Part shown: positions 14,263 through 34,791 of the stretch, one piece after another
Layout of the letters: every line of letters starts with the position of its first letter
How positions within the stretch are numbered: the first letter of the stretch is position 1
Source of the DNA: an uncultured Desulfobacterales bacterium
GTDB taxonomy: Bacteria; Desulfobacterota; Desulfobacteria; Desulfobacterales; Desulfococcaceae
Direction: 5' to 3'
Assembly: GCA_964346545.1 (NCBI GenBank)
Contig: CAYFVR010000001.1
Location: 11,440-52,622, forward strand
DNA: 41,183 bases
The notes under the pieces: generated by a model
The model's input: the letters and a program-made list of their open reading frames with translations, nothing else
Databases searched by the model: none
What the model was told of the DNA's origin: nothing
Made by a program: the position numbers and the translations under genes

Positions 14263-14265
14263 TCC

Positions 14266-16709: not shown

Positions 16710-16989
16710 TTTTTTCATCGTTTTCCCGAAGTGGGGCGATTCCCCATCGTCGCTACATCGTTATCCCCATATCCGCGCCGGACGGGTATTTATGGCGGAT
16801 TTTCACGATGAAATCCCTTGACAACACTATGCTTTTCTGAATAGGAAAGATCATCTTGGATTTTCCACCCCCGGCCGATCTCCCCCACGCGGAACCTCGC
16901 CGGGAGAGGGACCGGTTTCGCACGATCCTCGCCAAACACCGTCAAACCAGATGGTCAACCCCAATACCAGCATGAAAACGGAGATTCTT

Positions 16990-19104
16990 ATGGGCGAAGC
17001 ACGATTCAACCAGCGGCGGACGTCGTCGACGTCACGGAAATGGGTATTGCTTCTTTGCATGGGGCTATTACTTTTCGGTTGCGCCCACATGCCTTCTCCC
17101 CAGGAGATGGAAGCCGAGCGGGAGGCCAACGCCCGTCAGGACGTGGAAGCCATCAAGCCGGCCATGGGATACGGCAATTTCGGAGAAGCGCCGTTGACCC
17201 TGGAAGACTGCATCCGGTACGCCCTCGACAACAATCTGGAGATGCGCATCGCCCGGTTGAACGAGGAGATCGCCGACCAGGAAAGCCTGGTGGCCAAACT
17301 CCAAATGCTCCCCAGCCTCTCCGCCGACGCCACCTACAAGCGGCGGGACGTCCTTCGCAAGAGCGACGCCTACAACTGGCTGCTCGACGAGGACCAGCCG
17401 GATTTCACGGTGTCGGAGCTGAAGGACAACACTCGGGCCAACCTGACCCTCACCTGGAACATCCTGGACACCATGATGGCCTACGTCCGGGGCAACGCCT
17501 CGGAAATGCAGGAAGAGGTGATCCGCCGGGAACGGGCCCGCCAAGCCCAACAGCTGGCCCTGGACGTGACCCGGGCCTATTGGCACGCCGCGGCGGTGGA
17601 AGACGCTCTGGATTACGTCCACGTGGTGGAGGCCAATCTGAAGCAGGTAAAACGCAACATGGACCAGGCCGTGGCCCGGGGCAGCTACGACAGCATGGCC
17701 GCCTCGGACGCGGAGCTTCGGCTCAAGGAATTGGAGCTGACCATCCGCCAGCTCCAGGCCAACCTCTCCAGGGAACGGCTCCAGCTCGCCCAGCTCATGG
17801 GCCTCAACCAGAACGTCCAGTTCACCCTGGCCCGGCCGCCCATCAAGCCCATCGTCGCCAACCTTCCCCACACCAAGGAGTTGAACATCGACCGGCTGGA
17901 AGAATACGCCCTGCTCCACCGGCCGGAGCTGTTCGCCAGCGACATGCAGGTTCGCATCCAGAAGGAGGAGGCCAAGAACAAGGTTCTGGCCATGTTTCCC
18001 GGAATTTCCATCTTCGCCGGGGGCCATTACGAGGACAACCGGCTGTTGCTTCAGAACAACTGGGCCACCGTCGGCGCCGGCATTGGTTGGGAATTGCTGG
18101 ACCTGCCGGCCAAATTCATGTCCTACAAGGGACAGAAGAAGGCCATCCAGATGGCCGAGGCCCAGCGGCTGATGTCCACCGTGGGCGTCATCACCCAGGT
18201 CCACATCGCACTGCTCGACTACGCCATCAAGGTGGACCGGTTCCGCCTGCTGGACGAAACCTACGCCTTGGCCAACAACCTCTTCGACATGGCCCAGACC
18301 AAGAACCAGGCCGGCCGCCTGCCGGAACTGGCGGTCACCCAGCGCCACCTGGAGGAGATGGCGGCCAAACTTCGACGGGACGAGGCCGTGGTGGACATGC
18401 TGGTGGCCCACAAGCGGCTCTGCGTCAGCATCGGCATGGATCCCCTGGAATGCGATCAGCGGGGAATGCTGGCCTCGGCCGGCGGGAGCGGCGCCGGGCT
18501 TTCCGGGAACGTTCGGGAGCTGAACTACACCGCCACCACCGGCATGAGAAAATGGCGCAGCACCGAGACTGGCTACATCCACATTGGTCCCACGCCGCCG
18601 GAAATCGACCCCATTAGCGGTTTGGGTCCGGAATACTTTGTGGAGGTGACCAACGGCCAAGAGAGCGACGCGATTATGGCTATCACGGGCACGGAATCGG
18701 GCATGATTTCCGGAACAAGTTCGGGTCCCATCGAGGACGCCGACCTGGATACCTGGGGCGTAACCCCGCCGGTTTCCACCCGCGACGGCGGCATGAGTCG
18801 AAGTTCCGACGGCGCCCCCGGCTACGCCGGTCCGGCGGCCGACCGCTTCCTCTGGCAGGTGCAGATGGGCGCGTTCTCCGAGCCTTCCGGCCCCACCAAG
18901 CGAATGAGCGAGGTGGAGGCCCTGAACCTCCGCATGCTCGACACCCGCGACACGGCCATCACCACCGCCCGGGTGCAGGGAAACTTGTTGAATCGGGTTC
19001 GCGTCCGCGGTCTGACCCAGGCGGAAGCCCAGGAACTGGCCCGCGAGCTGCGGGGCCGGGGCGTGGACCATTGGGTCATCGCGCCGGGAAGCGTCCACTG
19101 GTAG
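16990..19104 (+). CDS. TolC-family outer-membrane factor lipoprotein with a C-terminal SPOR (peptidoglycan-binding) domain
   Basis: The start is set at ATG 16990 (GGAG at 16980-16983, 6-nt spacer), giving MGEARFNQRRTSSTSRKWVLLLCMGLLLFGC (lipobox-like). LTLEDCIRYALDNNLEMRIARLNEEIADQE and a duplicated coiled-coil architecture indicate an OEP/TolC fold. The last 85 aa (18847-19101) are FLWQVQMGAFSEPSG...LLNRVRVRGLTQAEAQELARELRGRGVDHWVI, which fits the SPOR pattern (VQxGAF ... RVRVGxxxxxxEAxxxxxxL). Confidence 0.8.
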   Translation: MGEARFNQRRTSSTSRKWVLLLCMGLLLFGCAHMPSPQEMEAEREANARQDVEAIKPAMGYGNFGEAPLTLEDCIRYALDNNLEMRIARLNEEIADQESLVAKLQMLPSLSADATYKRRDVLRKSDAYNWLLDEDQPDFTVSELKDNTRANLTLTWNILDTMMAYVRGNASEMQEEVIRRERARQAQQLALDVTRAYWHAAAVEDALDYVHVVEANLKQVKRNMDQAVARGSYDSMAASDAELRLKELELTIRQLQANLSRERLQLAQLMGLNQNVQFTLARPPIKPIVANLPHTKELNIDRLEEYALLHRPELFASDMQVRIQKEEAKNKVLAMFPGISIFAGGHYEDNRLLLQNNWATVGAGIGWELLDLPAKFMSYKGQKKAIQMAEAQRLMSTVGVITQVHIALLDYAIKVDRFRLLDETYALANNLFDMAQTKNQAGRLPELAVTQRHLEEMAAKLRRDEAVVDMLVAHKRLCVSIGMDPLECDQRGMLASAGGSGAGLSGNVRELNYTATTGMRKWRSTETGYIHIGPTPPEIDPISGLGPEYFVEVTNGQESDAIMAITGTESGMISGTSSGPIEDADLDTWGVTPPVSTRDGGMSRSSDGAPGYAGPAADRFLWQVQMGAFSEPSGPTKRMSEVEALNLRMLDTRDTAITTARVQGNLLNRVRVRGLTQAEAQELARELRGRGVDHWVIAPGSVHW

Positions 19105-19141
19105 TCTCCGAGCGGTTCGGGCGGGCCTGAACGGCTCGCCG

Positions 19142-19174
19142 CCGGCCGGAGCGGTGGCCCACCGCTCCGGCCGG
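19142..19174 (+). terminator. GC-rich hairpin between the OMP gene and the giant gene; partial terminator or processing/stability element
   Basis: CCGGCCGGAGCGGTGG (19142-19157), one C, then CCACCGCTCCGGCCGG (19159-19174) form a near-perfect 33-nt palindrome 38 nt after the stop. No immediate T-run follows; the nearest is CCGTTTTCTCGCATTTTCG about 20 nt downstream. Confidence 0.4.
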
Positions 19175-19289
19175 ACGAACGCCCCCGAAATCTCCGTTTT
19201 CTCGCATTTTCGCACCGCTTGGCCGCGCCGCCCCTTTCGGCAACCCGTCTGCGAACGTTCGGCCCCACCGTCTCAGGGAGGTTATCAGG

Positions 19290-22200
19290 ATGTTGAACCT
19301 AATGAAGCTGGAAAATCGGATTGTGCTGGACGCGGCGGGCATGGACGCCGCCATGGACCATGCCGCCGACGGACCGGATGACGTCGGACCCAATCCGGAC
19401 GCGGAATCCGCCTCAATTCCCGACGCCCCCGACGTACATGCCGGCGCCGTCGCCGAAGTCGCCACCATGCTGTCCGCCGACGAAGGGGACGCCGCCGACG
19501 GAAGGCCGGAAGACATCGGCCCGATTCTCCGCCCCGCCGAGGGCTCCGACCCGTTGAACGTCGTGCTGATCGCCGACAATCTCCCGGATTTGCAAACGCT
19601 AAGGGACGCGATTCATCCCGACGCCAAAGTCATCGAATACGACGCCGACGCGGAATCGGCCCAAGAGGTGGTCGCTCGCGTGACCGCCGTCGCCGAATCG
19701 AACGGGTCGATTGAATCGCTGACCTTGTTGTCCCACGGCGGCAGTGGCTTTTTCCAGCTCGGCAACGAACGCATAACTACGGACAATCTCTCCGACAACG
19801 CGACCGCATGGAGAGCGCTGGATGAAGCCATGGAAGATGGCGGCCAGATTCATCTGATGGGCTGCAACGTGGCCGAAGACTCGGAAACCGGTCTGACCTT
19901 GCTGAACGGGGTGGCCGAGGCCACCCAAGCCACCGTTTTTTCCTCCAACGACATCACCGGCAAGGGGGGCGACTGGGAGCTGGAGACCGCTTCGGACGAG
20001 GCGCCCGGTCGGGCCGATCTTCCGCTGGACGTCGCCCTTCTGGGAGATTACGCCGGCCAGCTTCAGGACCCGCCGGTACAGTTCGTGCCGCCCACGGAAG
20101 TTTTCGGCCGGGAGGACGCCCGATCGGGCATCGTCATCACCCTGTTCGTTCGGAATGATGTCGATCCGGATTCCCTCCAAATCCAGGCAACCCCCGCCGG
20201 GGGAGACGACGTTATCCGACTGTCCGACATCGATCAGCCCGAGTTGGGCAGTCAAGTGCCTTATAACCCGCAACCCGGTCAGGTCCGGCCCCCCGCCGGC
20301 TACACCGGCTTCACCTGGGTGGCGTTCTACTCGCCTCAGGCCAACCAGTTTCACCCCAACGGCGATGAAACACCCATTACCGTTAGCGTCCAGTCGGGGA
20401 ACGGCGGCCAGGCGGTGGACGCAACCGAAACGTACACGCTGACCGTTGATCCCCTGAACGACGCGCCTTTTCTCAGGGAAGGTCTCGAAAGCACGGGGGA
20501 CTTCGTCGATGATTTCCGGAACGTTGGCACCATCGACATTGGCACTGTCGAAGAGGACGCCACCGATCCCGCAGGGATTCCACTGTCCACGCTCATCAAT
20601 CCGGCCATCTTGGACGTGGACGACGGTGATCCCACCGGCATTGCCATTATCGGAACGGATGTCGGCGGGGGCGGTGTCTGGCAGTTCAACAGCGGCGGCG
20701 GATGGGTGGATGTCGGCCCGGTATCCGCCGAAAGCGCGTTGGTGCTGGCGTCCAGCGTCCAGGTTCGCTTCCTCCCGCAAGGCCAATGGAGCCAGGAACA
20801 AACCGAGGCGACACTTGAATTCCGGGCCTGGGACCAGACCGACGGCAACGCCTCCGGCGCAACCGGGGTCAACACCGAGGTCGGCCCCCGCCCCTCCGAG
20901 CCGGGTGACACCGCGGCCTACAGCAAGGCGACCGGCAATCTGCGCGTCGAGGTCACCCCGGTGAACGACGCTCCGGAACCGCCAACCGTTGAAATCGACG
21001 ATCCCTACATCGAAAACGGGTTCGTGACGCCCGACCAGACCGGCGTCCCCAAGGAACTGGGCATCACCCTCGGCGAAGACCCCGACGACACCGATTTCAC
21101 CGAGGTGGTCGTGGAAATCACCGACGGCTTCCAGAACGATTCCCGGGGCGTGGACGTTCTTTTCTTGGCGGGGAGCCTTCCGTCCACCATCCAGGCCCAG
21201 GTCGAAACCGGGCGGGTGGTGTTCACGCCCGCCGACGGACTGGAATCGGCGCCGATTTCGGATTTTCAATTGGCCGTGGACCAGGTGCGGTACGAACATG
21301 CGGGCGGCCCCGATCTCCTGGGTCCGGGCGAGGAAGCGAGCGCCCTGAACGGCGACGATCCCATCGAGCGTCCCCGCGCCATCGAAGTCACCGTTTCCGA
21401 CGCCAACGCCAGCGAAGCCGACAACGGCATTCAGGATTCCACCGGCGAGGGAGAACTCCCGGTGGACGCGGTCAACGACGGGCCCGACGCCGAGCCGGAA
21501 AGCGACGAGCTGGTCTATTCCCTGAACGTGAACCAGCCCACCCGTCTTGCGCTGGTGGACAATACCTTCACGCTGGAGGATGTGGACGACGTGGATTTGG
21601 CCACGTCCAACCTGCCCCGGGGGGTCGGCGAAATTCGGGTGCGGATTGAAGATGGCTACACCGCCGCCGTGGACGAACTGGAATTTGACGGCGCGGGCTT
21701 CAACGACGTTTCCGTCAGCGTTCAGGAAGGGGGGCGGACCCTGGTGCTGACCCCGACCAACGGCCAGGCATTCACCCTTTCCCGCGCCGAAGACGTGGCC
21801 CGCCAAGTATCCTACGTCAACAACGCCGCCGACGCGGCCCAGGCCAACGAAGACGCGGATCGGGTCGTCGCCATCACCGTCACCGACAACAATTCCGGCG
21901 GCGAGGGCGACTTTTCGGAACCCCAGATTCCCGCGCCGACCGATCCGCAATTCGTGGACGGCCCCAAAAGCGACACGGTCACCCGAACCATTCAAATCGA
22001 CGCCGACGCGCCGCCCGAACTCGATTTCGGGGACGGCATCTTCGAGGACAACGGGAATCCCAACGATCCCTTCTTTTCGCCCCGGACGCCCGACCAGGTG
22101 GAAGGCTTCACGGTCCAAGACATCGTCGCCAGCTTCAACCTGCCCAACCAGCCGCCCAACCAGGGGGTCGAGGCGCTGGCCATCACGGCGGTGGACGACG

Positions 22201-24674
22201 CCAACGGCCAGTGGCAATTTCTCGATTCCACCGGCCAGTGGGCGCCCATCGACAACGGCCAGCTCGACGAGGCCAACGCCCTGTTGCTGGGTCCCACGGA
22301 CCAGATTCGGTTCATTCCGGACGAAAATTTCAACACCGACGAGGAGCCCGGCGCCGTCACGCCGACCATCACGGCCAAGTCATGGGACACCGCCGAATTC
22401 GCCGGCACCCCGGGGACTTTCGTGAACACCGTGGGCGACAACGTCGCCTTCAGCCAGGAAGGCACGGGCGAGTTGCCGGTGCTGGCCGTCAACGACCGGC
22501 CGGACATCGTTTTGGGTCCCAACCTGGACCCGGACAACGACGACGTGGTGAACGAACAACAACGGCTGGACGAGAGCGGCCGAATCACCTTCACCGGCAT
22601 CACTCTTCAGGACATCGACCTGGCCAAGGGGGAGGAAGACGGTCCCAATCCCGGCCAGATCGACCTGACGGTTTCGGTGGATCGGGCCAGCAGCCAAGTC
22701 TTTCTGGACAGTCTGGCCGGCGTCACGATTATTGGCGGAGCCAACGGCTCCCAGACCGTGACCATCCGGGGCGATTTGGCCGACGTCAGCTCCGCCATTC
22801 AGACCGGCCTTCGCTACGAGGCCGACCTGAACGAGCTGAACAACGCGGCGTCGGATCAAGCCTACGACACGATTAACATCACCTCCAACGACCTGGGCAA
22901 CGCCGGTCTTCCCGGTTCGCTCCAGGACGCGGACAACATCCAGATCGCCCTCTTCCCGGGGGACGCCCCGCCAGAGATCGACCTGGACGAAAACGACGAC
23001 GGCGGCGCCGACCCGGAAAACGACATCCCGCCGGCGGGTCCCCAGGCCCCGGGGAACGAGGACACCGGCAACTACAACGTCTTCTTCATCGAAGACAGCG
23101 ACTGCACCCCGGTGCTCATCGCCGACGAAGACATCCTGATCGCCGACGACAATGGCCTGATCCAGCGCATGACCGTGGAGTTGACAAATCGGCTGGATTC
23201 CGGCGGCCCGGCCTCCCCGCCGCCGGAACAGGGAGGGCAACTCTTGGCGCTGGACCAGAACGCCGAGTCCGGACTGCTGGAATCCCTGGGCTTTAGTCAG
23301 GACGTACTGGACGCCGTCAACGCCGATCCAAACACCAATATCACGGTGAACGTTGCCCAGCAGACCAACGCCGCCGGCCAGGTGGTGGCCTTGACGCTGG
23401 AATTCCAGGGAATCGCGTCCACCGAGGCCTATCAGCAAATCCTGAACACGGTCACCTACGACAACGACTCTCAAAACCCCAGCGACACCACCCCCGCCGG
23501 GGAGAGCGTGCGCCGGGTGGCCGCGGTGACGGTGACCGACGTGCCCATCGACGGCGAGGGCCCGGGCCAGAGCAGCACCGCCTTTTCCCGAATCGCCATC
23601 ATCCCCGTCAACGACGCGCCGGTCAACCAGGTTCCCGGTGAAATTATCGTTCCCTCCGGCACCATCGTGGACATCGGCGGCCAGCTCGACGTGGGCGACG
23701 TGGAAGGGCCGGCGGAGATGTCCGTCAACCTGGGCGTCATCTTCGGCGTCTTGAACGTCGCGGAGGGCCAAGGCGTCCAGATCGACGGCAACGGCACGGC
23801 GGACCTGACCCTGACCGGCTCCATCGAAGCGGTCAACGCGGTTCTGGATTCGCTGTCCTACGCGCCGCCGGCGAATTTCACCGGCGAGGACACCTTGACC
23901 GTCACCTCCAACGATTTCGGATACGAGGGAATCAACCCGTCCTTCGTGGGAAGCAACGGCGTCCGTTGCGTGGTTGCGCCTTTCGACGAGGCGGGAAATC
24001 CCATCGTGGACGAACGCGGCGACCTCGTCCCCGACGGGCCCGACGAAAAAACTCCCAACGATCGGGACGCCCTGACCGACGTGGACACCATTCTCATCCG
24101 GGTGGCCCAATCCGATCCGGACACCCTGCCGGAACCGCCGACGCCGCCCCCGAGCCCGCCGCTCCAGCCCATCGCCCCGCCGGACGCCGACGGTCCCGAC
24201 GGCATCAGCCCCGGCCCCGTCAATCTCCCCGGCATGGTGGGCGTAACCGGCGGGCAGGCCGGCATTTCGGCCCGCGGCATCGGCCCCGGCGGCGAGGGCT
24301 TCATGGACTTCTGCTCCATCGAGGAGGCCCTGCGCAGCCATCTGGGCTGCCGCTTCGCCAACACCCTGAATCCGGAATCCCAGTTCAGTTCCCTCTCCTG
24401 GGGCGACATGACCGACCTGGGCTGGAAGCCGCCCTCGCTGTATCTGGACGAGGAGTACGACCTGTATTCCCAGCTCTTCATGGAAGAGCCGGGCGACCCG
24501 GGCTTCAACGTGGAGGCGGGCGCCTTCGGCGTGGACCTGGGCGGCCTGCCCGAAACGCCGGAGCGGGTCTTCCGGGAAGGCCAAAACCGGGAAACCTTCA
24601 ACGAGATGGAACCCAACGAAATTCGCGAAGCCTTTTTCGCCAACCGGAAAAACCTTGATCGAACCGGACGATAA
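19290..24674 (+). CDS. Giant (1,794 aa) acidic surface/secreted-type protein with an LExR-IxL N-terminal motif, a DUF4347 domain, multiple cadherin-like/VCBS-like modules punctuated by xVNDxP, a Pro-rich linker and a distinct C-terminal domain
   Basis: GGGAGG lies 8 nt upstream of ATG 19290. The N-terminus MLNLMKLENRIVLDAAGMDAAMDHAAD has no hydrophobic signal peptide. The DUF4347 region (about 19551-19986) reads NVVLIADNLPDLQTLRDAI...VIEYDAD...IESLTLLSHGGSGFFQLGNERIT...IHLMGCNVAE...ATVFSSNDITGKGGDWELE. N-D-x-P boundary motifs (LNDAP, VNDAP, VNDGP, VNDRP, VNDAP) occur near 20457, 20964, 21474, 22491 and 23609. The Pro linker is at about 24126-24200. Confidence 0.9.
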   Translation: MLNLMKLENRIVLDAAGMDAAMDHAADGPDDVGPNPDAESASIPDAPDVHAGAVAEVATMLSADEGDAADGRPEDIGPILRPAEGSDPLNVVLIADNLPDLQTLRDAIHPDAKVIEYDADAESAQEVVARVTAVAESNGSIESLTLLSHGGSGFFQLGNERITTDNLSDNATAWRALDEAMEDGGQIHLMGCNVAEDSETGLTLLNGVAEATQATVFSSNDITGKGGDWELETASDEAPGRADLPLDVALLGDYAGQLQDPPVQFVPPTEVFGREDARSGIVITLFVRNDVDPDSLQIQATPAGGDDVIRLSDIDQPELGSQVPYNPQPGQVRPPAGYTGFTWVAFYSPQANQFHPNGDETPITVSVQSGNGGQAVDATETYTLTVDPLNDAPFLREGLESTGDFVDDFRNVGTIDIGTVEEDATDPAGIPLSTLINPAILDVDDGDPTGIAIIGTDVGGGGVWQFNSGGGWVDVGPVSAESALVLASSVQVRFLPQGQWSQEQTEATLEFRAWDQTDGNASGATGVNTEVGPRPSEPGDTAAYSKATGNLRVEVTPVNDAPEPPTVEIDDPYIENGFVTPDQTGVPKELGITLGEDPDDTDFTEVVVEITDGFQNDSRGVDVLFLAGSLPSTIQAQVETGRVVFTPADGLESAPISDFQLAVDQVRYEHAGGPDLLGPGEEASALNGDDPIERPRAIEVTVSDANASEADNGIQDSTGEGELPVDAVNDGPDAEPESDELVYSLNVNQPTRLALVDNTFTLEDVDDVDLATSNLPRGVGEIRVRIEDGYTAAVDELEFDGAGFNDVSVSVQEGGRTLVLTPTNGQAFTLSRAEDVARQVSYVNNAADAAQANEDADRVVAITVTDNNSGGEGDFSEPQIPAPTDPQFVDGPKSDTVTRTIQIDADAPPELDFGDGIFEDNGNPNDPFFSPRTPDQVEGFTVQDIVASFNLPNQPPNQGVEALAITAVDDANGQWQFLDSTGQWAPIDNGQLDEANALLLGPTDQIRFIPDENFNTDEEPGAVTPTITAKSWDTAEFAGTPGTFVNTVGDNVAFSQEGTGELPVLAVNDRPDIVLGPNLDPDNDDVVNEQQRLDESGRITFTGITLQDIDLAKGEEDGPNPGQIDLTVSVDRASSQVFLDSLAGVTIIGGANGSQTVTIRGDLADVSSAIQTGLRYEADLNELNNAASDQAYDTINITSNDLGNAGLPGSLQDADNIQIALFPGDAPPEIDLDENDDGGADPENDIPPAGPQAPGNEDTGNYNVFFIEDSDCTPVLIADEDILIADDNGLIQRMTVELTNRLDSGGPASPPPEQGGQLLALDQNAESGLLESLGFSQDVLDAVNADPNTNITVNVAQQTNAAGQVVALTLEFQGIASTEAYQQILNTVTYDNDSQNPSDTTPAGESVRRVAAVTVTDVPIDGEGPGQSSTAFSRIAIIPVNDAPVNQVPGEIIVPSGTIVDIGGQLDVGDVEGPAEMSVNLGVIFGVLNVAEGQGVQIDGNGTADLTLTGSIEAVNAVLDSLSYAPPANFTGEDTLTVTSNDFGYEGINPSFVGSNGVRCVVAPFDEAGNPIVDERGDLVPDGPDEKTPNDRDALTDVDTILIRVAQSDPDTLPEPPTPPPSPPLQPIAPPDADGPDGISPGPVNLPGMVGVTGGQAGISARGIGPGGEGFMDFCSIEEALRSHLGCRFANTLNPESQFSSLSWGDMTDLGWKPPSLYLDEEYDLYSQLFMEEPGDPGFNVEAGAFGVDLGGLPETPERVFREGQNRETFNEMEPNEIREAFFANRKNLDRTGR

Positions 24675-24679
24675 TCTTC

Positions 24680-24708
24680 GGGCGGGCCGGCGATCCACCG
24701 GCCCGCCC
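24680..24708 (+). promoter_or_regulatory. Intercistronic GC hairpin between the giant gene and the M50-adaptor gene
   Basis: GGGCGGGCCGG (24680-24690) and CCGGCCCGCCC (24698-24708) form a perfect 11-bp stem with a 7-nt loop and no T-run. The hairpin fills most of the 48-nt gap between TAA 24674 and ATG 24723. Confidence 0.5.
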
Positions 24709-24722
24709 ACCCGCCTCGCGCC

Positions 24723-26912
24723 ATGACCAACGACGCCGATTCCCCCCGCCAAAATCCGGCCGGAGCCGCGCCTTCCGCTCCCGCCACCCTGGAAGACTAC
24801 CTGGAAACGCCTTGGCGGGGGTTGCGCCCGGATTTGAAACTGTTCCCCGGCCCGGTGGAATACGACGGCCAGCGTTCCTGGGTGCTGGAAGACCCGGTGC
24901 GGGGCAACACCTATCGGCTGGGCCACGCCGAAGGCGAATTGATCTACCGCCTCGTCGCCGGCCGCTCCCCCGAGTCGGCCCTTCGCCACCTGTACCAGAC
25001 CACCACCCTCCGGCCCACCCCCGCGGACGCGATCGCCTTCCTGACCATGCTCCAGCGGGAGCGGCTGACCCGGCTGCCCGCCGACTTCGTCGAAAAATCG
25101 GCCGCGGCCGGCGGCGACGCGGGCGAGCCTTCGGCGTTGGACCAACTTCGTCAAGGAAGCATCTTTTTCCGGATTCCCCTGCTCCGTCCCGACGGATTCC
25201 TCTCGCGAACCGTCCGCTGGGCGTCCATGCTCTGGTCTCCCCCCCTCCGCTGGTTCTACCTCCTGTGCGGGCTGACCGGCCTGGCGCTCACGGCGCAGGA
25301 GATCGAGGCCTACCTGGGCACGGTCAACTACCTGTTCACCCCCCGGGGCGGGCTGGCGTTCCTGGCCTGCCTCGTCGCGCTCAAAATCGGCCACGAATTC
25401 GCCCACGCCTACGCCGCCAAGGCCATGGGGCTCCACGTCCGAAGCATGGGAATCATGCTCATCGTCGTCTGGCCGCTGCTCTACACCGACACCACCGACG
25501 CCTGGAAACTGCCCGACCGCCGGCGGCGCATGGCCATCAGCGCCGCCGGGGTGACGTTCGAACTGGCGGTGGCCGGGGTCGCCCTGTTGCTCTGGGCCAG
25601 CGTCCCGGACGGGATCGCCCGCAGCATCTTCTTTTTCCTTTCCAGCGCCTCCCTCATTTCCACGGTCCTGATCAACCTCAACCCGTTCATGCGCTACGAC
25701 GGATACTATCTGCTGATGGACCTGTGGGGCATCGACAACCTGCGGCCCCGGGCCTTCGCGGTGCTGCGCCACGGCGCCCGGCGGCTGCTGCTGGACTGGA
25801 AGGCCCCGTCGCCGGAAATTCATCCCCACCGGCGGGCCATGCTGGTCTACGGCTTTTTCGCGGCCCTCTACCGGCTCTTCATCGGGGCGACCATCGCCCT
25901 TGCGGTCTACCACCTGCTGTTCCCCGCCCTGGGGCTGGCGGTCTTCCTGCTTCAGCTCTGGCTGTTCCTGATTCGGCCGGTCATCGGGGAGGTTCGCGCC
26001 GCATGGCGGGGCCGGCGCCACTGGGGCTCCCGCTTTCGGATCGCGGCCAGCGGCCTGGGATTCGCCGGCCTGCTGGCCCTTCTGGTTCTGCCCCTGCCCC
26101 GCTTCGAGACGGTTCCCTCCCTGCTGCTGTTCCAGGAGGCGATCCGGGTGGAAGCCCCGTCCCCCGGGCGGCTCTCCGAGGCGCTCCCCGCCGAGGGACG
26201 AACCGTGACCGAGGGCGAACCCCTGGTTCGGCTAACCAGCGACACCCTGGCCTTCGAACGGGAACAGGCCGAATTCGATCTTCAAAAGGTCCGGGCCGGC
26301 ATCCGGAATCTGGGGACCAGCCCGGAGCAGGTCGCCTACGGCCGCTGGCTGGAGGCCGAGGCGGAGCGACTCCAGAGCATTCTGGACAAATATCGGGAGG
26401 CCATGGCCCAGATGGAAATCCGGGCGCCCGCCGAAGGCCGGATCGTGGACGTCAACCCGGATCTGTACGCCGGGGCCTTTCTGCGCCGGGGGGTTCACCT
26501 GTTCACGGTGATGGCGCCGTCCCGTCACGAGGTCAAGGCCTTCGTCCACGAAAAGGCCATGCCGGACCTTCGAGTGGCGGCCATCCGCGAGGCGACCGTC
26601 CGCCTGCCCGCCCCGGAGATCCCGGCCATCCGGGTCCGGCTGGCGGAGCGGAGCCGGTTTCCGGCGCATCGCCTGCCCAACCAAAGTCTGTTTGACATCG
26701 CCGGCGGCCCTATTGTATCCGTGGAAGATTCCCTGGGACGCCGGCCCCGGGACGCCTATTTCACCCTGACCTTCGAGGTGCCGGACCCGCCGCCGGGCCG
26801 CTTGGCCCATGGGCTTCCGTCCCGGATCTGGCTGCGAACGGCGGGGCGGCCGCTCTTGGTCCGCGCCGCCGCCGGCATTTGGCAACCCCTCTCCGAGCGA
26901 GGACTTTTCTGA
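24723..26912 (+). CDS. Fusion protein: cytoplasmic N-terminal domain, polytopic M50 (site-2-protease-like) zinc metalloprotease, and a C-terminal HlyD/membrane-fusion-protein-like periplasmic region
   Basis: HEFAH (25392-25406) sits inside a TM segment (LACLVALKIGHEFAHAYAAKAMG), and NLNPFMRYDG (25674-25703) is the NxxPxxxxDG second M50 motif. After further TM helices come lipoyl/beta-barrel-like adaptor motifs: IRVEAPSPGRLSEALPAEGRTVTEGEPLVRL, coiled-coil FEREQAEFDLQKVRAG...LEAEAERLQSILDKYREAMAQMEIRAPAEGRIVDV. Confidence 0.8.
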   Translation: MTNDADSPRQNPAGAAPSAPATLEDYLETPWRGLRPDLKLFPGPVEYDGQRSWVLEDPVRGNTYRLGHAEGELIYRLVAGRSPESALRHLYQTTTLRPTPADAIAFLTMLQRERLTRLPADFVEKSAAAGGDAGEPSALDQLRQGSIFFRIPLLRPDGFLSRTVRWASMLWSPPLRWFYLLCGLTGLALTAQEIEAYLGTVNYLFTPRGGLAFLACLVALKIGHEFAHAYAAKAMGLHVRSMGIMLIVVWPLLYTDTTDAWKLPDRRRRMAISAAGVTFELAVAGVALLLWASVPDGIARSIFFFLSSASLISTVLINLNPFMRYDGYYLLMDLWGIDNLRPRAFAVLRHGARRLLLDWKAPSPEIHPHRRAMLVYGFFAALYRLFIGATIALAVYHLLFPALGLAVFLLQLWLFLIRPVIGEVRAAWRGRRHWGSRFRIAASGLGFAGLLALLVLPLPRFETVPSLLLFQEAIRVEAPSPGRLSEALPAEGRTVTEGEPLVRLTSDTLAFEREQAEFDLQKVRAGIRNLGTSPEQVAYGRWLEAEAERLQSILDKYREAMAQMEIRAPAEGRIVDVNPDLYAGAFLRRGVHLFTVMAPSRHEVKAFVHEKAMPDLRVAAIREATVRLPAPEIPAIRVRLAERSRFPAHRLPNQSLFDIAGGPIVSVEDSLGRRPRDAYFTLTFEVPDPPPGRLAHGLPSRIWLRTAGRPLLVRAAAGIWQPLSERGLF

Positions 26913-26913
26913 C

Positions 26914-27717
26914 ATGGCCCGTTTTCGGCTGACGCCGCACCTTGTCCGCGCCCTTATGGCGCTTCTTCTCTCCATTCCCGCAACCGCTTTCGCCCAAGAC
27001 GCCCCGGCCCCCGGGGAATCCCCCGCGGATTCCATGGCGCCGGCGGAGCCGCCCGGCGTGTTCAAGCCCTTCCCCGTGGTGTTCGAGGCCCGCCAGAAGG
27101 CGGTGCTTTCGGCCGAGCGGGCGGGCGCCCTCACCAGCCTCAAGGCCGACGTGGGCGACACCGTCAAAAAAGGCGCGGTGATCGCCCAGGTGGACGTGGG
27201 GGAGGCCGCCCTCCGAAAAAAACGGGGGGAAGTGGCCCTCGGCCATCTGGAAAAGCAAATTCAGGAACTGACCCAGCTCAACCAGCGGGGACTGGCCACC
27301 AACGAGGAGGTGCAAAAGGTCCGCATGGAGCGGGACGTGACCCGGGCCGACGTGCAGATCTACAAGCGGCAGATCGCCCAGTCCACCATTCGCGCGCCGT
27401 TCGCCGGCATGGTGGTCCGCCGTCACGTGGAGCCCCACGAGTGGGTCACCGCCGGCCAGCCGGTGTTGGACATGGTCAATCTGGACCGCATCCGGGCCGT
27501 CGCCAACCTGCCCGCCCACATCGCCGTGCGGCTCAAGGCGGGCGACATCCACACCCTGTACATCCATGATCTGGAAGCCGAGATGAAGGGCACGGTGGAC
27601 GCCGTGGCCCCGGAGGTGGACGAGCGAAGCAATACCGCCCAAGTCATCTGGAGCGTGGACGCCGGCGGCCGACGGCTGTTGCCGGGCATGAAGGGAGAGG
27701 TCCGGGTTGAGCCGTAA
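26914..27717 (+). CDS. Periplasmic adaptor (membrane fusion protein, HlyD/RND-adaptor family), Sec-exported
   Basis: ATG 26914 lies 1 nt after the upstream stop. The signal peptide is MARFRLTPHLVRALMALLLSIPATAFA-QD. Motifs: AERAGALTSLKADVGDTVKKGAVIAQVD (lipoyl-like), a coiled coil, then TIRAPFAGMVVRRHVEPHEWVTAGQPVLDMVNLDRIRAVANLP. Confidence 0.8.
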   Translation: MARFRLTPHLVRALMALLLSIPATAFAQDAPAPGESPADSMAPAEPPGVFKPFPVVFEARQKAVLSAERAGALTSLKADVGDTVKKGAVIAQVDVGEAALRKKRGEVALGHLEKQIQELTQLNQRGLATNEEVQKVRMERDVTRADVQIYKRQIAQSTIRAPFAGMVVRRHVEPHEWVTAGQPVLDMVNLDRIRAVANLPAHIAVRLKAGDIHTLYIHDLEAEMKGTVDAVAPEVDERSNTAQVIWSVDAGGRRLLPGMKGEVRVEP

Positions 27718-29131
27718 ACCGCCGGAAATCGGGGAGACCATCGGGGGCGCGGCCCCCGACGGAACGAGCGCGGCGGGACGAAGCGTCCCGCCGGCCGCGG
27801 GGGCGACCCGGGAGCAGGTGCTGACCCGGTTCATCCGGATGTGCACGGCCGTCTTTTCCACCCCGGTCTCCCAAGAGGCCGCCGCCATCGCCGTCAACCG
27901 GGTGTCGGAGCTGACCCGGGTGGATCGGGCGGTCCTGGTCCGGCTGGACGGAAAGCCAACCATCGCCGCCGTCAACGGCGGCGGCGCGGCGGCCCAGGAC
28001 AGCGCTTTCGCCGACGCGGTGGAAACGGCCCGAAAACGGTTCGGCCGCCGGCCCGAGGCGGTGGTGGTGCCGGTCGTGTCCGACGCCGAACGGGAATCGG
28101 CCCCCTCGCTCCACGCCGTTCAGCGGGCCATGGGCGGCGCCCAGATTCTGTGGCTGCCGCTCTGGCTCTCCAGCGATCAGAGCGTCCCGCCGCGCCAAGC
28201 CCTGTGGCTGGAGCGGTGGCACGGCAACCGCTGGGAGCGGGGCGACGTGGAGCTGTTGCAGCACGCCGCCCTCTTTCTGGGCCACGGTCTCCTCCGGTCC
28301 CGGACGCGGCCCAAGGCGCGGGGCCGATACCTTCGGCTGGGGCTTCTGGCCGCGCTGCTGCTTTTTCTGGCCATGCCGGTCACCTCTCGGGTCACCGCCC
28401 CCGCTCGGGTGGCGCCCGACCGTCCCCACCATATTTTCGCGCCCATGGACGGCATCATCAAGGAGTTGCTGGTGCGGCCCGGCCAATGGGTGGAGCCCGG
28501 CGACGTGCTCTACCGCTACGACGCCCGGGTGCTGGACAAACGGCTGGACGAGGCCTTTCGCCAGGTGGCGGTGGAACGGGCCAAGCTGGCGCGGCTCCAG
28601 GGCGCGGCCCACCGAGATCCCGAGGCCCGGGCCGAACTGCCGGTTCAGGATTTGGAGGTCAAGCGGGCCGAGGCGGAAACCGTCTTTTACGCCCAGCAGC
28701 AGGATCGGGCCGACGTGCGCACCGCCCAGCCCGGCGTCGTCGTGCTGGACGATCCCGACGCCCTGATCGGCGCGGCGGTCCAGACCGGCCAGGCGGTCAT
28801 GAGCGTGGCCGACCCGGCCCAGACCAAGCTGCGGCTCCGGGTGCCCGCCGGCGACGTGGGCTTTCTGGAGGAAGGCGCCCGGGTCTCCATCCGGCTGGAC
28901 AGCAATCCGCTTCGGAACCTGCCGGCCATCATCACCCGGATCGGCTTCGAGGTCCGCCTCTCCGAAACCGGGACGCCGTCGGTGGCCGCCGACGCCGTCT
29001 GGGTGGGCGACCCGCCCGACGCGCAGCCGGGCCAGAAAGGCACGGCCCGCATCTTCGGCCCCTCCACCGTCATGGCCTTTCAAATTCTGCGCAAACCGTT
29101 CATCGCGCTCCGATCCATCACCGGCTTTTGA
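27707..29131 (+). CDS. HlyD-family adaptor with an N-terminal cytoplasmic GAF-like domain and one TM helix
   Basis: TTG 27707 follows a GGGAGAGG SD and overlaps the upstream stop by 11 nt. The N-terminal part of about 190 aa (FIRMCTAVFSTPVSQEAAAIAVNRVSELTRVDRAVLVRLDG ... QILWLPLW ... WERGDVELLQHAALFLGHGL) reads like a GAF fold. The TM helix is LRLGLLAALLLFLAMPV. Adaptor motifs follow: IFAPMDGIIKELLVRPGQWVEPGDVLYRYD ... DVRTAQPGVVVLDD ... GQAVMSVADPAQTKLRLRVP. Confidence 0.75.
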   Translation: MSRKPPEIGETIGGAAPDGTSAAGRSVPPAAGATREQVLTRFIRMCTAVFSTPVSQEAAAIAVNRVSELTRVDRAVLVRLDGKPTIAAVNGGGAAAQDSAFADAVETARKRFGRRPEAVVVPVVSDAERESAPSLHAVQRAMGGAQILWLPLWLSSDQSVPPRQALWLERWHGNRWERGDVELLQHAALFLGHGLLRSRTRPKARGRYLRLGLLAALLLFLAMPVTSRVTAPARVAPDRPHHIFAPMDGIIKELLVRPGQWVEPGDVLYRYDARVLDKRLDEAFRQVAVERAKLARLQGAAHRDPEARAELPVQDLEVKRAEAETVFYAQQQDRADVRTAQPGVVVLDDPDALIGAAVQTGQAVMSVADPAQTKLRLRVPAGDVGFLEEGARVSIRLDSNPLRNLPAIITRIGFEVRLSETGTPSVAADAVWVGDPPDAQPGQKGTARIFGPSTVMAFQILRKPFIALRSITGF

Positions 29132-29139
29132 TCGGCCCT

Positions 29140-29175
29140 CCCGTTCCAGCCCCCGTTCCAGCCCCCGTTCCAGCA
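29140..29175. repeat. Three tandem copies of a 12-bp unit CCCGTTCCAGCC in the gap upstream of the cyclase gene
   Basis: Copies at 29140-29151 and 29152-29163 are identical. The copy at 29164-29175 ends in A. The repeat lies 9 nt after the stop at 29131 and 50 nt before ATG 29226. Confidence 0.8.
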
Positions 29176-29225
29176 ATGGGACCGGCCTTCCCGCGCCGCC
29201 CGCCGCAACGGAACGACGCGCGCCC

Positions 29226-31778
29226 ATGAAGCGGTTTTCCCGGCTCCGGAGGCGGCTGTTCAAACCGACCTCCCTCCGTCACAAGCTCCACCTGATCGTG
29301 GGGCTCTTTTTTATCTTTCCGGTGCTCGGCTTTCTCTATTTCGCGGCGCGCCACGATTTCCTGCAAGACGCCTACCTGCCGCTGTTTTTCCTGGGGCTGC
29401 TCACCTTTTCCCTGCTGGGCATCTTGATGCTGCGGCGGCTTTTCGACGAGATCGCCGGCTTTTCCCGCCAGGCGGCCCGTCGGCTTGAATCCGAGGAGGC
29501 CGCGGCGGACCCCGACGAACTTCACGGGCTGGTCCACGCCTTTTCGGCCATCGAGCGGAAGTTTTCCGCCGCCATGAGGCGGCTGGAAAAAAAGACCACC
29601 GACATCGCGGTGCTCAAGGAGCTGTCCGACCTCTGCTACGTGACCTTCGACCCCGAGGAAATTCTCTACGTCACCCTGGAACGGGCCCTGGTGCTGACCG
29701 AATCGGAGATCGGCTCCGTTCTGATTCTGGAGCGGGGAGAGCCCAAGACCTTCGTGGTCAAGGCCTGCATCGGGCTGGGCGAGCGCGTCCGCATCGGAGA
29801 CCGGCTCCCCTTCGACCAGAGCGTGGCCAAGTACGCCGTGATCAACAAATCCCCCCTGATCGTGGAGGACATCGAACGCGACACCCGGTTCGGCCGGGCC
29901 AACCGCCCCCACTACGGCACCAAATCCTTCGTCTGCATGCCCATCAAAACCAGCAAGGACATCGCGGGCGCGCTGACCATTTCCCGAAAAAACGAAGACC
30001 GGGGCTACACGCCGGAGGACGTGGAGGCGCTCGTTCCGCTGTTGAGCAACGCGGCCTTCACCTACGAAAATCTTCGGCTGATCAAGGAAAACGAGCGGTG
30101 GTCCCGTCGGTTGCGGACCATGGAGAAGGTGTTCGGCCTCATCAACTCCAGCTTTCGGGGACGAGAACTGATCGGCGCGGTGCTGGGCGAAATCCACGCG
30201 GTGCTTCCCTTCGCCTACGCGCTGATCCTGCTGCGGGAACCGGGCCGCACGCATCGAATGCAAATCCACGACATGGCCGGAAGCGCCCCGGGCGGGCTGG
30301 TCCGGGGCGGCGGCCTGGGAGTTTCCGGCTCGGTCATGGAGCGCGTGCTGGGACGGAAGACCTTCCGGATCGTCGAGGACACCCGGAAGCTGGACGGCGA
30401 AACCGACCGGGCCATCCTGCCGCCCGGAGATGCGGCGGCGGGCCTGCTGGCCCCGATCACCGAGGACGGATCGGCCGTGGGGGTGCTGGTGATGGGCTTC
30501 GAGTCGTCGGCGGACATGGCCGAGGCCCGGGAGGCGGCGAGCTGGGCGGCGGGCGGCGTCTCCCTGGCGGTGGAGCGGGACCGGCTGTCGGCGGGCCTGA
30601 TCCGGCGGGACCGGGAGCTGGACTCGATCCGGCAGATCGGCCGGGCATTGGCCTCCTCCACCTTCGACACCCAAAAAGTCTTGAGCTACACCATGGACAT
30701 GATCCGGGTGCTCATCAACGCCGAGGCGGGCGCGCTGTTTCAGGTGGAAAACGCCGAGCTGGTCAGCGCGGCGCTGTTCAACATCGATCTGGGCGATCTG
30801 GACGCCATCCGCCTGCGGCCGGGCCAAGGGGTGGCCGGCGTCGTGGCGGCCCGGGGAGAGCCGTTGATCGTCAACGACCCCGACCGGTCCCCCCATTTCC
30901 ATCCCCAGGTGGACGATCTCACCGGATTCCGCACCCGCTCCATCCTCTGCGTGCCGATCATCTCCCAAGGCAGAGTCATCGGCGTCATCGAGGTGCTGAA
31001 CAAGTTGAGCGGGGATTTCACGCTCAAGGACCGGGACCTGCTGGTTTCCATCGCCGCGTCGGTCAGCATCGCCATCGAAAACGCGCGGCTGTACAAGGAA
31101 ACCGTGGCCATGGCCGAACACGAACGGGGCATCCGGCGGGTGTTTCAGAAATTCGTCCCCCGCCAGATTCTGGATCAGATTCTTCACGGCGCCGAGGGCG
31201 GCCAGACCGGGCTGAACGAACTCAAAACCGTCACCCTGCTCAACATCGACATTCGCAAATCTTCGGATTTCGTCCGACGGGTGGGCCCCCAGAAAACGGT
31301 GGCGCTGCTCAATCATTTCTTTTCGGTGATGGGGGAAATCGTTTTCGCCCACAAGGGCATCGTGGACAAATACCTGGGAGACGGCTTTCTGGCGCTGTTC
31401 GGCGCGCCGGTCTCCAGCACCCGGGACGCCGAAAACGCGGTGAGCGCGGCCCTGGAGATGAAAAACGCCATGGAGCGGGTCAACGCCCACTGCCGCGAGA
31501 CCTACGGGGAAACCGTGACCATGGGCATCAGCGTCCATACCGGAGAAATGGTGGTGGGAAACATCGGGTTTGAAATGAAGATGGACTACACGGTGATCGG
31601 GGACCCGGTGAACATCGTTTTCCGCCTCCAGGAGCGGACCCGGCCCTTTCCCGACGGCATTCTCGTCACGGAAAACGTCTGCCGGGCCGCCCTCTCCCCC
31701 CTGGAGGTGGAACCGGTTTCCGAGCCGCTGGCCGGCCTTCGGATCTTGGAGCTGAAGGGCCGGCGCGGCGGCGGATAA
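29226..31778 (+). CDS. Membrane-anchored 3xGAF class III adenylate/guanylate cyclase
   Basis: Two N-terminal TM helices (LIVGLFFIFPVLGFLYF, LPLFFLGLLTFSLLGILML) are followed by three GAF-like blocks. The third reads GQGVAGVVAARGEPLIVNDPDRSPHF...TRSILCVPIISQGRVIGVIEVLNK. The cyclase domain (about 31130-31700) has TLLNIDIRKSSDF ... IVDKYLGDGFLALFGAP ... GISVHTGEMVVGNIG ... DYTVIGDPVNIVFRLQE, so the metal Asp residues and the K, N and R positions are present. Confidence 0.9.
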   Translation: MKRFSRLRRRLFKPTSLRHKLHLIVGLFFIFPVLGFLYFAARHDFLQDAYLPLFFLGLLTFSLLGILMLRRLFDEIAGFSRQAARRLESEEAAADPDELHGLVHAFSAIERKFSAAMRRLEKKTTDIAVLKELSDLCYVTFDPEEILYVTLERALVLTESEIGSVLILERGEPKTFVVKACIGLGERVRIGDRLPFDQSVAKYAVINKSPLIVEDIERDTRFGRANRPHYGTKSFVCMPIKTSKDIAGALTISRKNEDRGYTPEDVEALVPLLSNAAFTYENLRLIKENERWSRRLRTMEKVFGLINSSFRGRELIGAVLGEIHAVLPFAYALILLREPGRTHRMQIHDMAGSAPGGLVRGGGLGVSGSVMERVLGRKTFRIVEDTRKLDGETDRAILPPGDAAAGLLAPITEDGSAVGVLVMGFESSADMAEAREAASWAAGGVSLAVERDRLSAGLIRRDRELDSIRQIGRALASSTFDTQKVLSYTMDMIRVLINAEAGALFQVENAELVSAALFNIDLGDLDAIRLRPGQGVAGVVAARGEPLIVNDPDRSPHFHPQVDDLTGFRTRSILCVPIISQGRVIGVIEVLNKLSGDFTLKDRDLLVSIAASVSIAIENARLYKETVAMAEHERGIRRVFQKFVPRQILDQILHGAEGGQTGLNELKTVTLLNIDIRKSSDFVRRVGPQKTVALLNHFFSVMGEIVFAHKGIVDKYLGDGFLALFGAPVSSTRDAENAVSAALEMKNAMERVNAHCRETYGETVTMGISVHTGEMVVGNIGFEMKMDYTVIGDPVNIVFRLQERTRPFPDGILVTENVCRAALSPLEVEPVSEPLAGLRILELKGRRGGG

Positions 31779-33015: not shown

Positions 33016-33069
33016 CGATCCTCCTTTTTGGGTGGGTTCCCGGCCGCGACCGCCGAAAAAAAGGGGGCG

Positions 33070-33795: not shown

Positions 33796-33804
33796 CGGCG
33801 ACTC

Positions 33805-34587: not shown

Positions 34588-34791
34588 ATCCCGGGAATGG
34601 GGAAACGATTTCCCTATCCCTTACCCGGTATGGGCGTCGGAAATCAAGGGGGAACTACGCGGCCCGCCGGGGAAAACCGCTTGCCGGGCCGGGAAAATGT
34701 CTTACCATAGACCGTCAGTCGTTTTCAGAAAATCGGGCGGCGGAATCCCAAGGGAACGCGGCTCGGAAAAGACCGAAATTCGGGAGAAATT

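Follow-up and report, generated by a model that had tools for sequence, protein, structure and literature searches.

Six co-directional genes lie together on the + strand of a 41,183-nucleotide stretch of DNA (the window, counted from its first letter) from an uncultured Desulfobacterales bacterium. They encode an outer-membrane factor (OMF) of the TolC family, a giant acidic protein, an M50 metalloprotease fused to a periplasmic adaptor (the M50 fusion), two further adaptors of the membrane fusion protein (MFP) type, here MFP4 and MFP5, and a nucleotide cyclase. The first five recur as a cassette that may export and process giant proteins marked by an N-terminal leader, and the leader may be read by a domain of the M50 fusion resembling the recognition elements (RREs) of ribosomally synthesized and post-translationally modified peptides (RiPPs). 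The original prediction had described the same six genes, and an open reading frame (ORF) check, Pfam and NCBIfam agree with it on their coordinates and domains; the gaps between successive genes are 185, 48, 1, −11 and 94 nt. The features, with the evidence for each and with amino acids (aa) counted within each protein, are as follows:

16951–19104 (alternative start 16990), + strand: TolC-family OMF, a lipoprotein (Pfam OEP, 139.7 bits)
19290–24674, + strand: giant acidic protein of 1,794 aa, the presumed cargo (direct sequence reading; DUF4347, 101.5 bits)
19308–19340, + strand: LEPR-like leader motif LENRIVLDAAG, aa 7–17 of the giant (motif common to 34 giant N-termini)
19554–20057, + strand: DUF4347 domain of the giant, with His149 (SHG) and Cys192 (GCNVA) (Pfam, alignment, AlphaFold, Foldseek)
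24210–24671, + strand: C-terminal two-Cys domain of the giant, aa ~1640–1794 (conservation among Desulfobacterales cargoes)
24723–26912, + strand: RRE-like/M50/adaptor fusion of 729 aa (Pfam, NCBIfam; AlphaFold mean predicted local distance difference test, pLDDT, 88.9)
24789–25112, + strand: predicted RRE-like cytoplasmic N-terminal domain of the fusion, aa 23–130 (AlphaFold topology, profile vs PDB)
25191–26087, + strand: polytopic M50/site-2 protease (S2P) core, aa 157–455 (Peptidase_M50, 32.2 bits; invariant motifs)
26094–26897, + strand: periplasmic adaptor part of the fusion, aa 458–725 (Foldseek, profile vs PDB)
26914–27717, + strand: Sec-exported periplasmic adaptor, MFP4 (RND_mfp, 149.5 bits)
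27707–29131, + strand: adaptor with a cytoplasmic GAF-like domain, MFP5 (HlyD_3, 60.5 bits; GAF, 17.1 bits)
29226–31778, + strand: membrane-anchored GAF-GAF class III cyclase (GAF_2, 124 bits; Guanylate_cyc, 62.8 bits)

The composition that the prediction had singled out, namely an OMF, adaptors, a giant non-Sec protein and, at the inner membrane, a single polytopic protein, the M50 protease, is real and conserved, and the profile searches (Pfam, NCBIfam) uphold each of its M50, HlyD and TolC assignments. It had also held that no ATP-binding cassette (ABC), resistance-nodulation-division (RND) or major facilitator superfamily (MFS) pump is encoded in the locus or elsewhere in the window, and three approaches concur: no such protein appears among the Pfam matches of the six proteins and the other window ORFs, neither a Walker A nor an LSGG motif occurs in any of the six, and a tblastn probe for ABC ATPases gave nothing in the window.

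The cassette is a large conserved family, not an accident of one genome. A profile search of 1.84 billion representative proteins placed 5,999 clusters (50% identity) in the M50-fusion family at E ≤ 1e-30, and the best 150 of these are all ~700 aa and match end to end. A one-genome-per-species scan found at least 583 relatives, and the best 80 loci, numbered with the prefix L, were examined with 10-kb flanks by tblastn with the window proteins, gene calling and all-against-all clustering. They span Desulfobacterota, Alpha-, Beta-, Gamma- and Zetaproteobacteria, Planctomycetota, Magnetococcales and Legionellales. Adaptor paralogues stand beside the M50 fusion in all 80 loci, a TolC-family protein in 55 and a giant in 49 when one giant cluster is counted, with more giants in other clusters; where an OMF or giant is missing, a contig end usually truncates the locus. 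Apart from the OMF, the two MFPs and the giant, no neighbour recurs. M50-HlyD fusions are therefore not distributed independently of giants, which accompany them in at least 49 of the 80 loci, and the core that is co-inherited with giants consists of the OMF, the soluble periplasmic adaptor, the GAF-bearing transmembrane (TM) adaptor and the M50 fusion. Gene order in the Desulfobacterales/Gamma clade is OMF, giant, M50 fusion, MFP, MFP, as in the window; in all more distant lineages it is giant, OMF, MFP, MFP, M50 fusion. A routinely linked ABC exporter, which would have made the window a mere exception, is absent from this neighbourhood: the tblastn probe detected an ABC ATPase within 10 kb in just two of the 80 loci (L060 and L061), in both cases several kilobases outside the cassette, and the probe evidently works because it found unrelated ABC genes in other fetched loci. 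No RND, MFS or MacB cluster is conserved among the neighbours in the 80 loci, nor is any small precursor gene, modification enzyme or pump.

The cassette also travels. On the E. coli IncFIA/FIB plasmid NZ_CP081687.1 (L201/L203, 44829–64580), PGAP annotates a 4,459-aa "Ig-like domain-containing protein", a TolC family protein, an RND adaptor, an HlyD protein and a second HlyD protein, which is the M50 fusion, and the order giant, TolC, MFP, MFP, M50 fusion includes no transporter. Of 5,426 complete E. coli genomes, 24 carry this version at ≥99% identity, mostly on plasmids and with four chromosomal placements; insertion sequence (IS) elements border the plasmid copy. The A. brasilense plasmid NZ_CP059452.1 likewise carries, per PGAP, a 3,399-aa "DUF4347 domain-containing protein", TolC, an adaptor, HlyD and HlyD, again with no transporter. 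In both the E. coli and the A. brasilense giant, the leader motif comes first and DUF4347 follows. Relatives are also encoded on the chromid of Cupriavidus metallidurans CH34 and on the M. gryphiswaldense plasmid pMSR-1. Beyond the Azospirillum cassettes lie three further genes, whose products could be cargo-modifying or unrelated; their positions in L048, with equivalents in other Azospirillum loci, are:

13233–16394, − strand: RTX serralysin-like metalloprotease (~1,050 aa)
18477–21533, − strand: double glycosyltransferase (~1,020 aa)
12306–13211, + strand: FkbM methyltransferase

The presumed cargo of the window was predicted to be a 1,794-aa acidic DUF4347 protein with no Sec signal, and it is: 18% of its residues are Asp or Glu, DUF4347 scores 101.5 bits, and the protein contains no hydrophobic segment at all, hence neither a Sec signal nor a TM segment. 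Its domains run, in order, leader, acidic linker, DUF4347, VNDxP-type repeat modules, Pro-rich linker and a C-terminal domain with two conserved cysteines (CS[IL]EEAL..LGCRFA), the last of which is common only to Desulfobacterales cargoes. Pfam finds no RTX/HemolysinCabind match in it. In giants linked to the cassette, LExR(I/V/L)x(L/F)D(G/A)A or LEPRxLLSA appears within the first ~5–30 residues, and the motif occupies the extreme N-terminus in 34 giants of the 80 loci, across phyla; examples are MLNLMKLENRIVLDAAG in the window, MALEPRFMFDAAG in A. brasilense and ...FALESRQLFDGAA in E. coli. Judged by motif and profile, this leader appears to be a variant of the NCBIfam "LEPR-XLL domain" (NF012209), a 24-aa motif with a cut-off of 17 bits, which the giants of L058 and L080 exceed at 22.6 and 18.7 bits; the window giant shares with LEPR-XLL proteins the position of the motif and its R-hydrophobic-x-L/F-D core. 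Between the leader and DUF4347 lie linkers of ~30 to 280 aa. A word-indexed search with the N-terminus of the window giant returned 16 short fragments.

A reverse test separated the leader from DUF4347. Metagenome contigs were sampled with a degenerate DNA pattern for the DUF4347 core, 66 of the 120 loci so collected truly encode DUF4347, and their leaders were scored with a broad regular expression that also covers the canonical LEPRxLLSA (as in L160 and L196). A TolC, MFP or M50 fusion gene was in the visible flank of 13 of 22 motif-bearing giants and of 1 of 11 motif-less giants that have DUF4347 at their very N-terminus and 3–10 kb visible upstream (Fisher p = 0.009 for motif versus machine presence); the single motif-less giant with a machine proved to be the frameshifted continuation of a motif-bearing ORF. 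Within the available flanks, it thus appears to be the leader, not DUF4347, that tracks the machine. Two tandem cargo paralogues of ~950 aa in Micavibrio and a related alphaproteobacterium (L039 and L042; 243–6052) begin with the leader LEKRLMLDAS, and tblastn did not find DUF4347 in them; cargo therefore need be neither giant nor DUF4347-bearing.

On the machine side, the AlphaFold model of the M50 fusion resolves into a cytoplasmic N-terminal domain, a polytopic M50 core and a MacA/AcrA-like adaptor. Pfam assigns Peptidase_M50 (PF02163) at 32.2 bits (cut-off 27.2) and HlyD_3 at 40.4 bits. The catalytic motifs, HExxH at aa 224–228 and NxxPxxxxDG at 318–327, had been called intact, and in 55 homologues the key residues H224, E225, H228, N318, P321 and D326 are invariant, with N320 and G327 conserved in at least 90%. 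Motifs and PF02163 match together place the protein, as a putative protease, in peptidase family M50/site-2 protease. By its profile matches, the core is most similar to RiPP leader proteases: NCBIfam daptide_HExxH (NF041824) scores 148.5 bits against a cut-off of 300, and YydH/LiaK (NF058609) 24.5 bits against 225. Because both values are below the equivalog cut-offs, the fusion is to be regarded as homologous to the daptide and epipeptide families, not as a member of them. The JGI name for the protein is "putative peptide zinc metalloprotease".

The two ends of the fusion are of different character. The adaptor part contains an alpha-hairpin (aa 507–562), and its best Foldseek matches are MacA, ZneB, MexA and AcrA (E from 7e-13 to ~1e-9), in a search run on the whole model whose matches this part dominates and which is silent on the M50 and RRE parts; its profile finds MacA in the PDB at E 5e-15. 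The N-terminal domain has, in AlphaFold, strands at 39–42, 53–57 and 62–66 followed by helices at 68–79, 83–93 and 100–112 (beta3-alpha3). Its family profile (A6), run against the whole PDB, retrieves only TfuB1 (6jx3_B, E 0.0064) and TbiB1 (5v1u_A, E 0.012); the Pfam PqqD model matches 1 of 18 members (E 0.079). TfuB1 and TbiB1 are lasso-peptide RREs that bind leader peptides. The modelled domain thus appears to resemble PqqD/RRE leader-binding domains, the E-values being weak and the specificity of the matches agreeing with the topology.

Two other cassette proteins would complete the proposed path to the outer membrane. The OMF, described earlier as a TolC-family lipoprotein ending in a SPOR domain, is confirmed as to the first two attributes by its OEP score and by the lipobox LFGC, which sequence reading from the 16951 start places at L41-F42-G43-C44; the SPOR match is weak, 19.9 bits against a Pfam cut-off of 21. 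The C-terminal extension concerned is clade-specific, the ~700-aa form being found mainly in the Desulfobacterales clade and also in Azospirillum (L048), and the OMF measures 500–650 aa in most other clades. HlyD_3 matches three window proteins, at 67.5, 60.5 and 40.4 bits. MFP4, kept as an orthologue in most loci, starts 1 nt past the stop of the M50 fusion and has a signal peptide that, as read from the sequence, ends AFA-QD.

MFP5, whose TTG start overlaps the MFP4 stop, consists of a cytoplasmic N-terminal domain of ~200 aa (GAF-like at aa ~40–195), a TM helix (209–227) and a periplasmic HlyD part. The GAF domain previously proposed for it remains below the Pfam cut-off in the window protein but is supported at the level of the family: 14 of 18 orthologues match GAF (E ≤ 1, best 1.6e-5), 8 of 18 match GAF_2, and the N-terminal domain is conserved family-wide (alignment A5). 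The cyclase gene fares the other way. Its product has two N-terminal TM segments, GAF domains (124 bits) and a Guanylate_cyc domain (PF00211, aa 666–819, 62.8 bits), by which it classifies as a putative class III nucleotide cyclase, as foreseen; Lys in DKYLGDG and Asp in IGDPVN, read by eye, suggest specificity for ATP and hence cAMP as product. Its supposed attachment to the module does not hold as a core feature, a GAF-cyclase of this type adjoining the cassette only in the two closest relatives, L001 and L002. Judged by distribution, GAF is a core feature of the machine and the cyclase a lineage-specific accessory. Other cyclases do adjoin the cassette, namely a GAF-cyclase in the planctomycete L033 and a CHASE2-cyclase in Desulfobacterota L067 (12174–14471) and L069 (981–3278), and this repeated, independent recruitment of three architectures suggests a real link between cyclic nucleotide (cNMP) signalling and the machine. 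FecR-domain proteins are encoded between giant and OMF in five loci (L046, L058, L061, L062 and L067); together with the CHASE2-cyclases, they hint at an extracytoplasmic sensing input.

Within the giant, DUF4347 (PF14252) covers aa 91–256. Its core is modelled by AlphaFold with block-mean pLDDT above 90 over aa ~91–230, one block being at 87, and H149 and C192 are invariant in alignment A3. Foldseek ranks Tce1 (9qpe_G, E 5e-6) first, followed by legumain and caspases 3, 6, 7 and 8. Tce1, a type VI secretion effector of P. aeruginosa, is described as a putative Cys protease, and its His/Cys pair can be overlaid on that of the self-processing domain of TcdB/MARTX (PMC13323088). The model thus gives DUF4347 a caspase/legumain-like fold of clan CD, akin to the cysteine protease domains (CPDs) of toxins, and makes it a putative His-Cys protease, an equally good candidate as the M50 protein for any release step.

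The remaining sizeable ORFs of the window are, by Pfam scan, NYN/LOTUS, TauE, aminotransferase, rhodanese-rubrerythrin, DUF255, TPR, Tex, DUF350, spermine-synthase-like, ArgZ-like, metallophosphoesterase, prepilin peptidase, Lon and isocitrate/isopropylmalate-type dehydrogenase proteins. By its best homologues, the window belongs to Desulfococcaceae/Desulfobacterales. Directly upstream of the OMF gene (13561–16709, +) lie genes for a 233-aa protein without a Pfam match, a double DUF350 membrane protein and a 529-aa spermine/spermidine-synthase-like protein; this triad (clusters c17, c5 and c4) occupies the same place in ~11 Desulfobacterales loci, not in other phyla, and could be either a conserved operon in its own right or an accessory particular to this clade. 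Downstream (31909–34587, −) are genes for a protein with an ArgZ-like arginine dihydrolase C-terminal domain, a metallophosphoesterase and an A24 prepilin peptidase; the long + strand ORF overlapping these genes (32083–34710) is probably spurious because it has no Pfam match and a lower G+C content at third codon positions (GC3). A rhodanese + rubrerythrin/ferritin-like fusion protein (5341–6180, −) adjoins a DUF255 thioredoxin-like protein (6321–8405, −). The left end of the window holds an NYN-LOTUS/OST-HTH protein (2–1354), several small ORFs and a TauE/SafE exporter, and the G+C content of positions 1–3000 is 0.48–0.52 against ~0.65 elsewhere; this end could be foreign DNA.

We consider it somewhat probable that the locus encodes a leader-guided, possibly cNMP-regulated, ABC-less envelope-spanning machine for the export and processing of one LEPR-type giant. 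We posit that the RRE-like domain would capture the N-terminal leader of the unfolded giant in the cytoplasm as an added beta-strand. Lasso-peptide B1 proteins bind their leaders by beta-strand addition. The M50 active site, at the inner face of the membrane, would then remove or otherwise process the leader, much as the C39 domain does in bacteriocin exporters and M50 proteases do for daptide and epipeptide RiPPs. Around the inner-membrane part, the three adaptor-type proteins would form an assembly that docks onto the TolC-like channel, giving the cargo a way out with no periplasmic intermediate. The GAF domain of MFP5 might act as a ligand-controlled gate on assembly or transport, the small ligand here probably being cAMP/cGMP from the adjacent GAF-cyclase, and the caspase/CPD-like DUF4347 could trim or release the cargo after export. 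Candidate energy sources for translocation are (i) the proton-motive force, (ii) extracellular folding acting as a ratchet and (iii) an unlinked ATPase. We dropped the idea that the acidic linker spans the whole duct while the leader is held in the cytoplasm, since linkers can be as short as ~30 aa. The strongest form of the proposal is that the cassette represents a new class of one-step diderm secretion, with the LEPR leader as signal, an ATPase-less RRE-M50-adaptor oligomer as both gate and leader peptidase, proton-motive force or extracellular folding as the drive, and a GAF-bound second messenger as the control; this version we hold tentatively, and doubt it more than we credit it.

Several observations weigh against such a machine. 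Export of the giant by the cassette and its cleavage by the M50 protease are predictions from gene content, no energy-coupling component is present among the linked genes, and we know of no precedent for motorless passage of a polypeptide of 1,800–4,500 aa across the inner membrane. The leader of the window giant is divergent, scoring 13.6 bits with NF012209 against the cut-off of 17. In the reverse test, nine motif-bearing metagenome giants have no machine gene in the sequenced flank, their contigs ending before the downstream side. The RRE assignment depends on weak profile E-values (0.006–0.012) and on the topology of a predicted model. The GAF match of the window MFP5 reaches 17.1 bits against a Pfam cut-off of 22.4, and a cyclase is adjacent in 6 of 81 sequences (the window and 5 of the 80 loci). 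On pMSR-1, the machine genes (L205, 8493–16079; OMF, MFP, MFP, M50 fusion) follow a 492-aa ELWxxDGT-repeat protein with neither leader nor DUF4347, which may be the remnant of a 5′-truncated cargo gene on a conjugative plasmid. Finally, gene calling in the 80 loci was crude, the longest ORFs being ranked by GC3.

The lack of a motor is also what commends the best of the alternatives, a type I secretion system (T1SS) whose ABC or other exporter is encoded elsewhere and in which the M50 fusion is only an accessory leader peptidase and adaptor. Translocation needs energy, the six proteins carry no NTPase motif, and an OMF with MFPs is the layout of T1SS and tripartite systems. Yet 78 of the 80 loci are free of ABC ATPases within 10 kb, and in the other two the match falls beyond the cassette; E. 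coli IncF and Azospirillum plasmids carry the cassette as a mobile, self-contained unit that brings no ABC gene with it; and its giants display an N-terminal leader and no RTX or HemolysinCabind match. Giant-adhesin loci, moreover, normally keep their ABC, MFP and OMF genes together, and a conventional ABC dimer would probably be crowded by three MFP paralogues and a polytopic fusion. We therefore rate this arrangement as unlikely, though ahead of the others.

A Lap-like retention and release device, which the original prediction had offered as a working hypothesis and which partly overlaps the export machine proposed here, is less probable still. In it, the giant would stand on the cell surface, tethered in the channel, until the M50 protease, acting as LapG, cut it free, and GAF and cNMP would stand in for LapD and cyclic di-GMP. 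The locus does offer an OMF with adaptors, a giant with repeats and an input from nucleotide signalling, and leader, linker and folded DUF4347 could plug the channel as the LapA retention module does. No BTLCP/LapG or LapD-like domain, however, was found in the window ORFs scanned with Pfam, and with linkers of the lengths given above, a tether that spans the envelope would not be general. LapG acts in the periplasm, whereas the M50 site and the RRE-like domain are modelled as facing the cytoplasm or membrane; an RRE-like domain paired with a leader points to recognition and processing at the cytoplasmic face rather than to a periplasmic release cleavage. This scheme, too, would leave export without a pump unexplained.

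In a further alternative, giant genes are chance neighbours of a peptide/RiPP or small-molecule efflux system, in which the M50 fusion would process and export a small leader-bearing peptide of the YydH/daptide sort or the adaptors would serve an efflux pump. This would fit the JGI name, the daptide and YydH/LiaK similarity and the RRE-like domain; we think it very improbable, given that no small precursor, modification enzyme or pump is conserved in the loci, that the giant is their only recurrent neighbour of this kind and that the leader-like motif sits on the giant itself. More improbable again is S2P-type regulated intramembrane proteolysis of a membrane regulator amid otherwise unrelated envelope proteins, which the M50/S2P catalytic motifs would allow but which the lack of any anti-sigma factor, sigma factor or PDZ/CBS domain argues against, as do the covalent adaptor fusion and the strict synteny with an OMF and two MFPs across phyla, both of which favour a transport-type assembly.

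Giant surface and secreted proteins shape adhesion, predation and symbiosis, and the leader-guided machine proposed here may be a new route for the export of very large bacterial proteins. A LEPR-type N-terminal motif is now tied to a specific gene set represented by ~6,000 clusters in many phyla. If the proposal is right, the cassette would be the missing export route for LEPR-XLL giants, some of which are among the largest bacterial proteins known, and RRE-type leader recognition would extend from peptides to proteins of megadalton scale; if the cassette exports its cargo, it would also break the rule that TolC-dependent systems need an ABC, RND or MFS motor. The searchable literature (subscription literature and database family notes being outside the search) yielded no description of an M50-adaptor/TolC system, or of a function for the LEPR motif or an export machine assigned to it. 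Since the cassette is found on E. coli IncF plasmids and in A. brasilense, the export question is open to direct genetics.

Among known systems, the T1SSs of giant adhesins (LapA/LapBCE, SiiE/SiiCDF, MpIBP) come closest in layout: like the cassette, they set a TolC-family OMF and HlyD/MFP adaptors beside a giant, acidic, repeat-rich, Sec-independent cargo, and one-step export through a trans-envelope duct is presumed for both. The cassette differs in having no ABC exporter within or near it, three adaptor paralogues instead of one and an M50 metalloprotease at the inner membrane, and its cargo bears a targeting-like motif at the extreme N-terminus in place of a C-terminal signal and, in the window, no RTX repeats. 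Of the defining T1SS parts, HlyD/MFP and TolC are thus present, and the HlyB-type ABC protein and a cargo with C-terminal signal and RTX repeats are not, the absence of a cryptic C-terminal signal being beyond computational proof; the RND, MFS or MacB transporter of a tripartite efflux pump is likewise missing from the window. The Lap system (LapA-LapG-LapD), which controls adhesin release through cyclic di-GMP, is similar in concept, with a giant at the cell surface that is cut close to its N-terminus and an inner-membrane component that senses a second messenger in the cytoplasm. The cassette, in contrast, has neither LapG (BTLCP) nor LapD (HAMP-GGDEF-EAL), its sensor is a GAF domain on an adaptor and its messenger probably a cNMP, its intramembrane protease would face the cytoplasm, and its cargo brings a clan-CD-like domain of its own. 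That domain shares fold class and the His/Cys pair with the CPDs of MARTX and TcdA/TcdB and with Tce1 (PA0256, PDB 9qpe), itself annotated as DUF4347, yet it stands near the N-terminus of a giant repeat protein that would take another export route.

The LEPR-XLL giants Cag_663 and Cag_665 of Chlorobium chlorochromatii resemble the window giant in their 24-aa extreme N-terminal motif, their very large size and the lack of a recognised export signal. According to a 2026 preprint, experiment shows their export to the partner cell, their genes flank a TolC-like gene, and they "lack known signals for transport" (bioRxiv 10.64898/2026.03.19.712371). At 36,806 and 20,647 aa, these Chlorochromatium giants were guessed by the same authors to use a sap-like T1SS (bioRxiv 10.64898/2026.03.19.712371). 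At the inner membrane, the nearest parallels are the peptidase-containing ABC transporters (PCATs) and the RiPP M50 proteases (YydH, LiaK and the daptide MpaP type), in which, as is proposed for the cassette, a protease embedded in the membrane is coupled to export of a substrate with a leader. Leader-binding domains of the RRE/PqqD type are characteristic of RiPP systems. The cassette departs from PCAT and RiPP systems alike in that its cargo is a protein of 1,800–4,500 aa and its protease is fused to a periplasmic adaptor and neither fused to nor placed beside an ABC transporter. The outer half of the cassette is thus like that of T1SSs and tripartite systems and its inner-membrane part like a PCAT or RiPP leader protease, and it is a member of neither.

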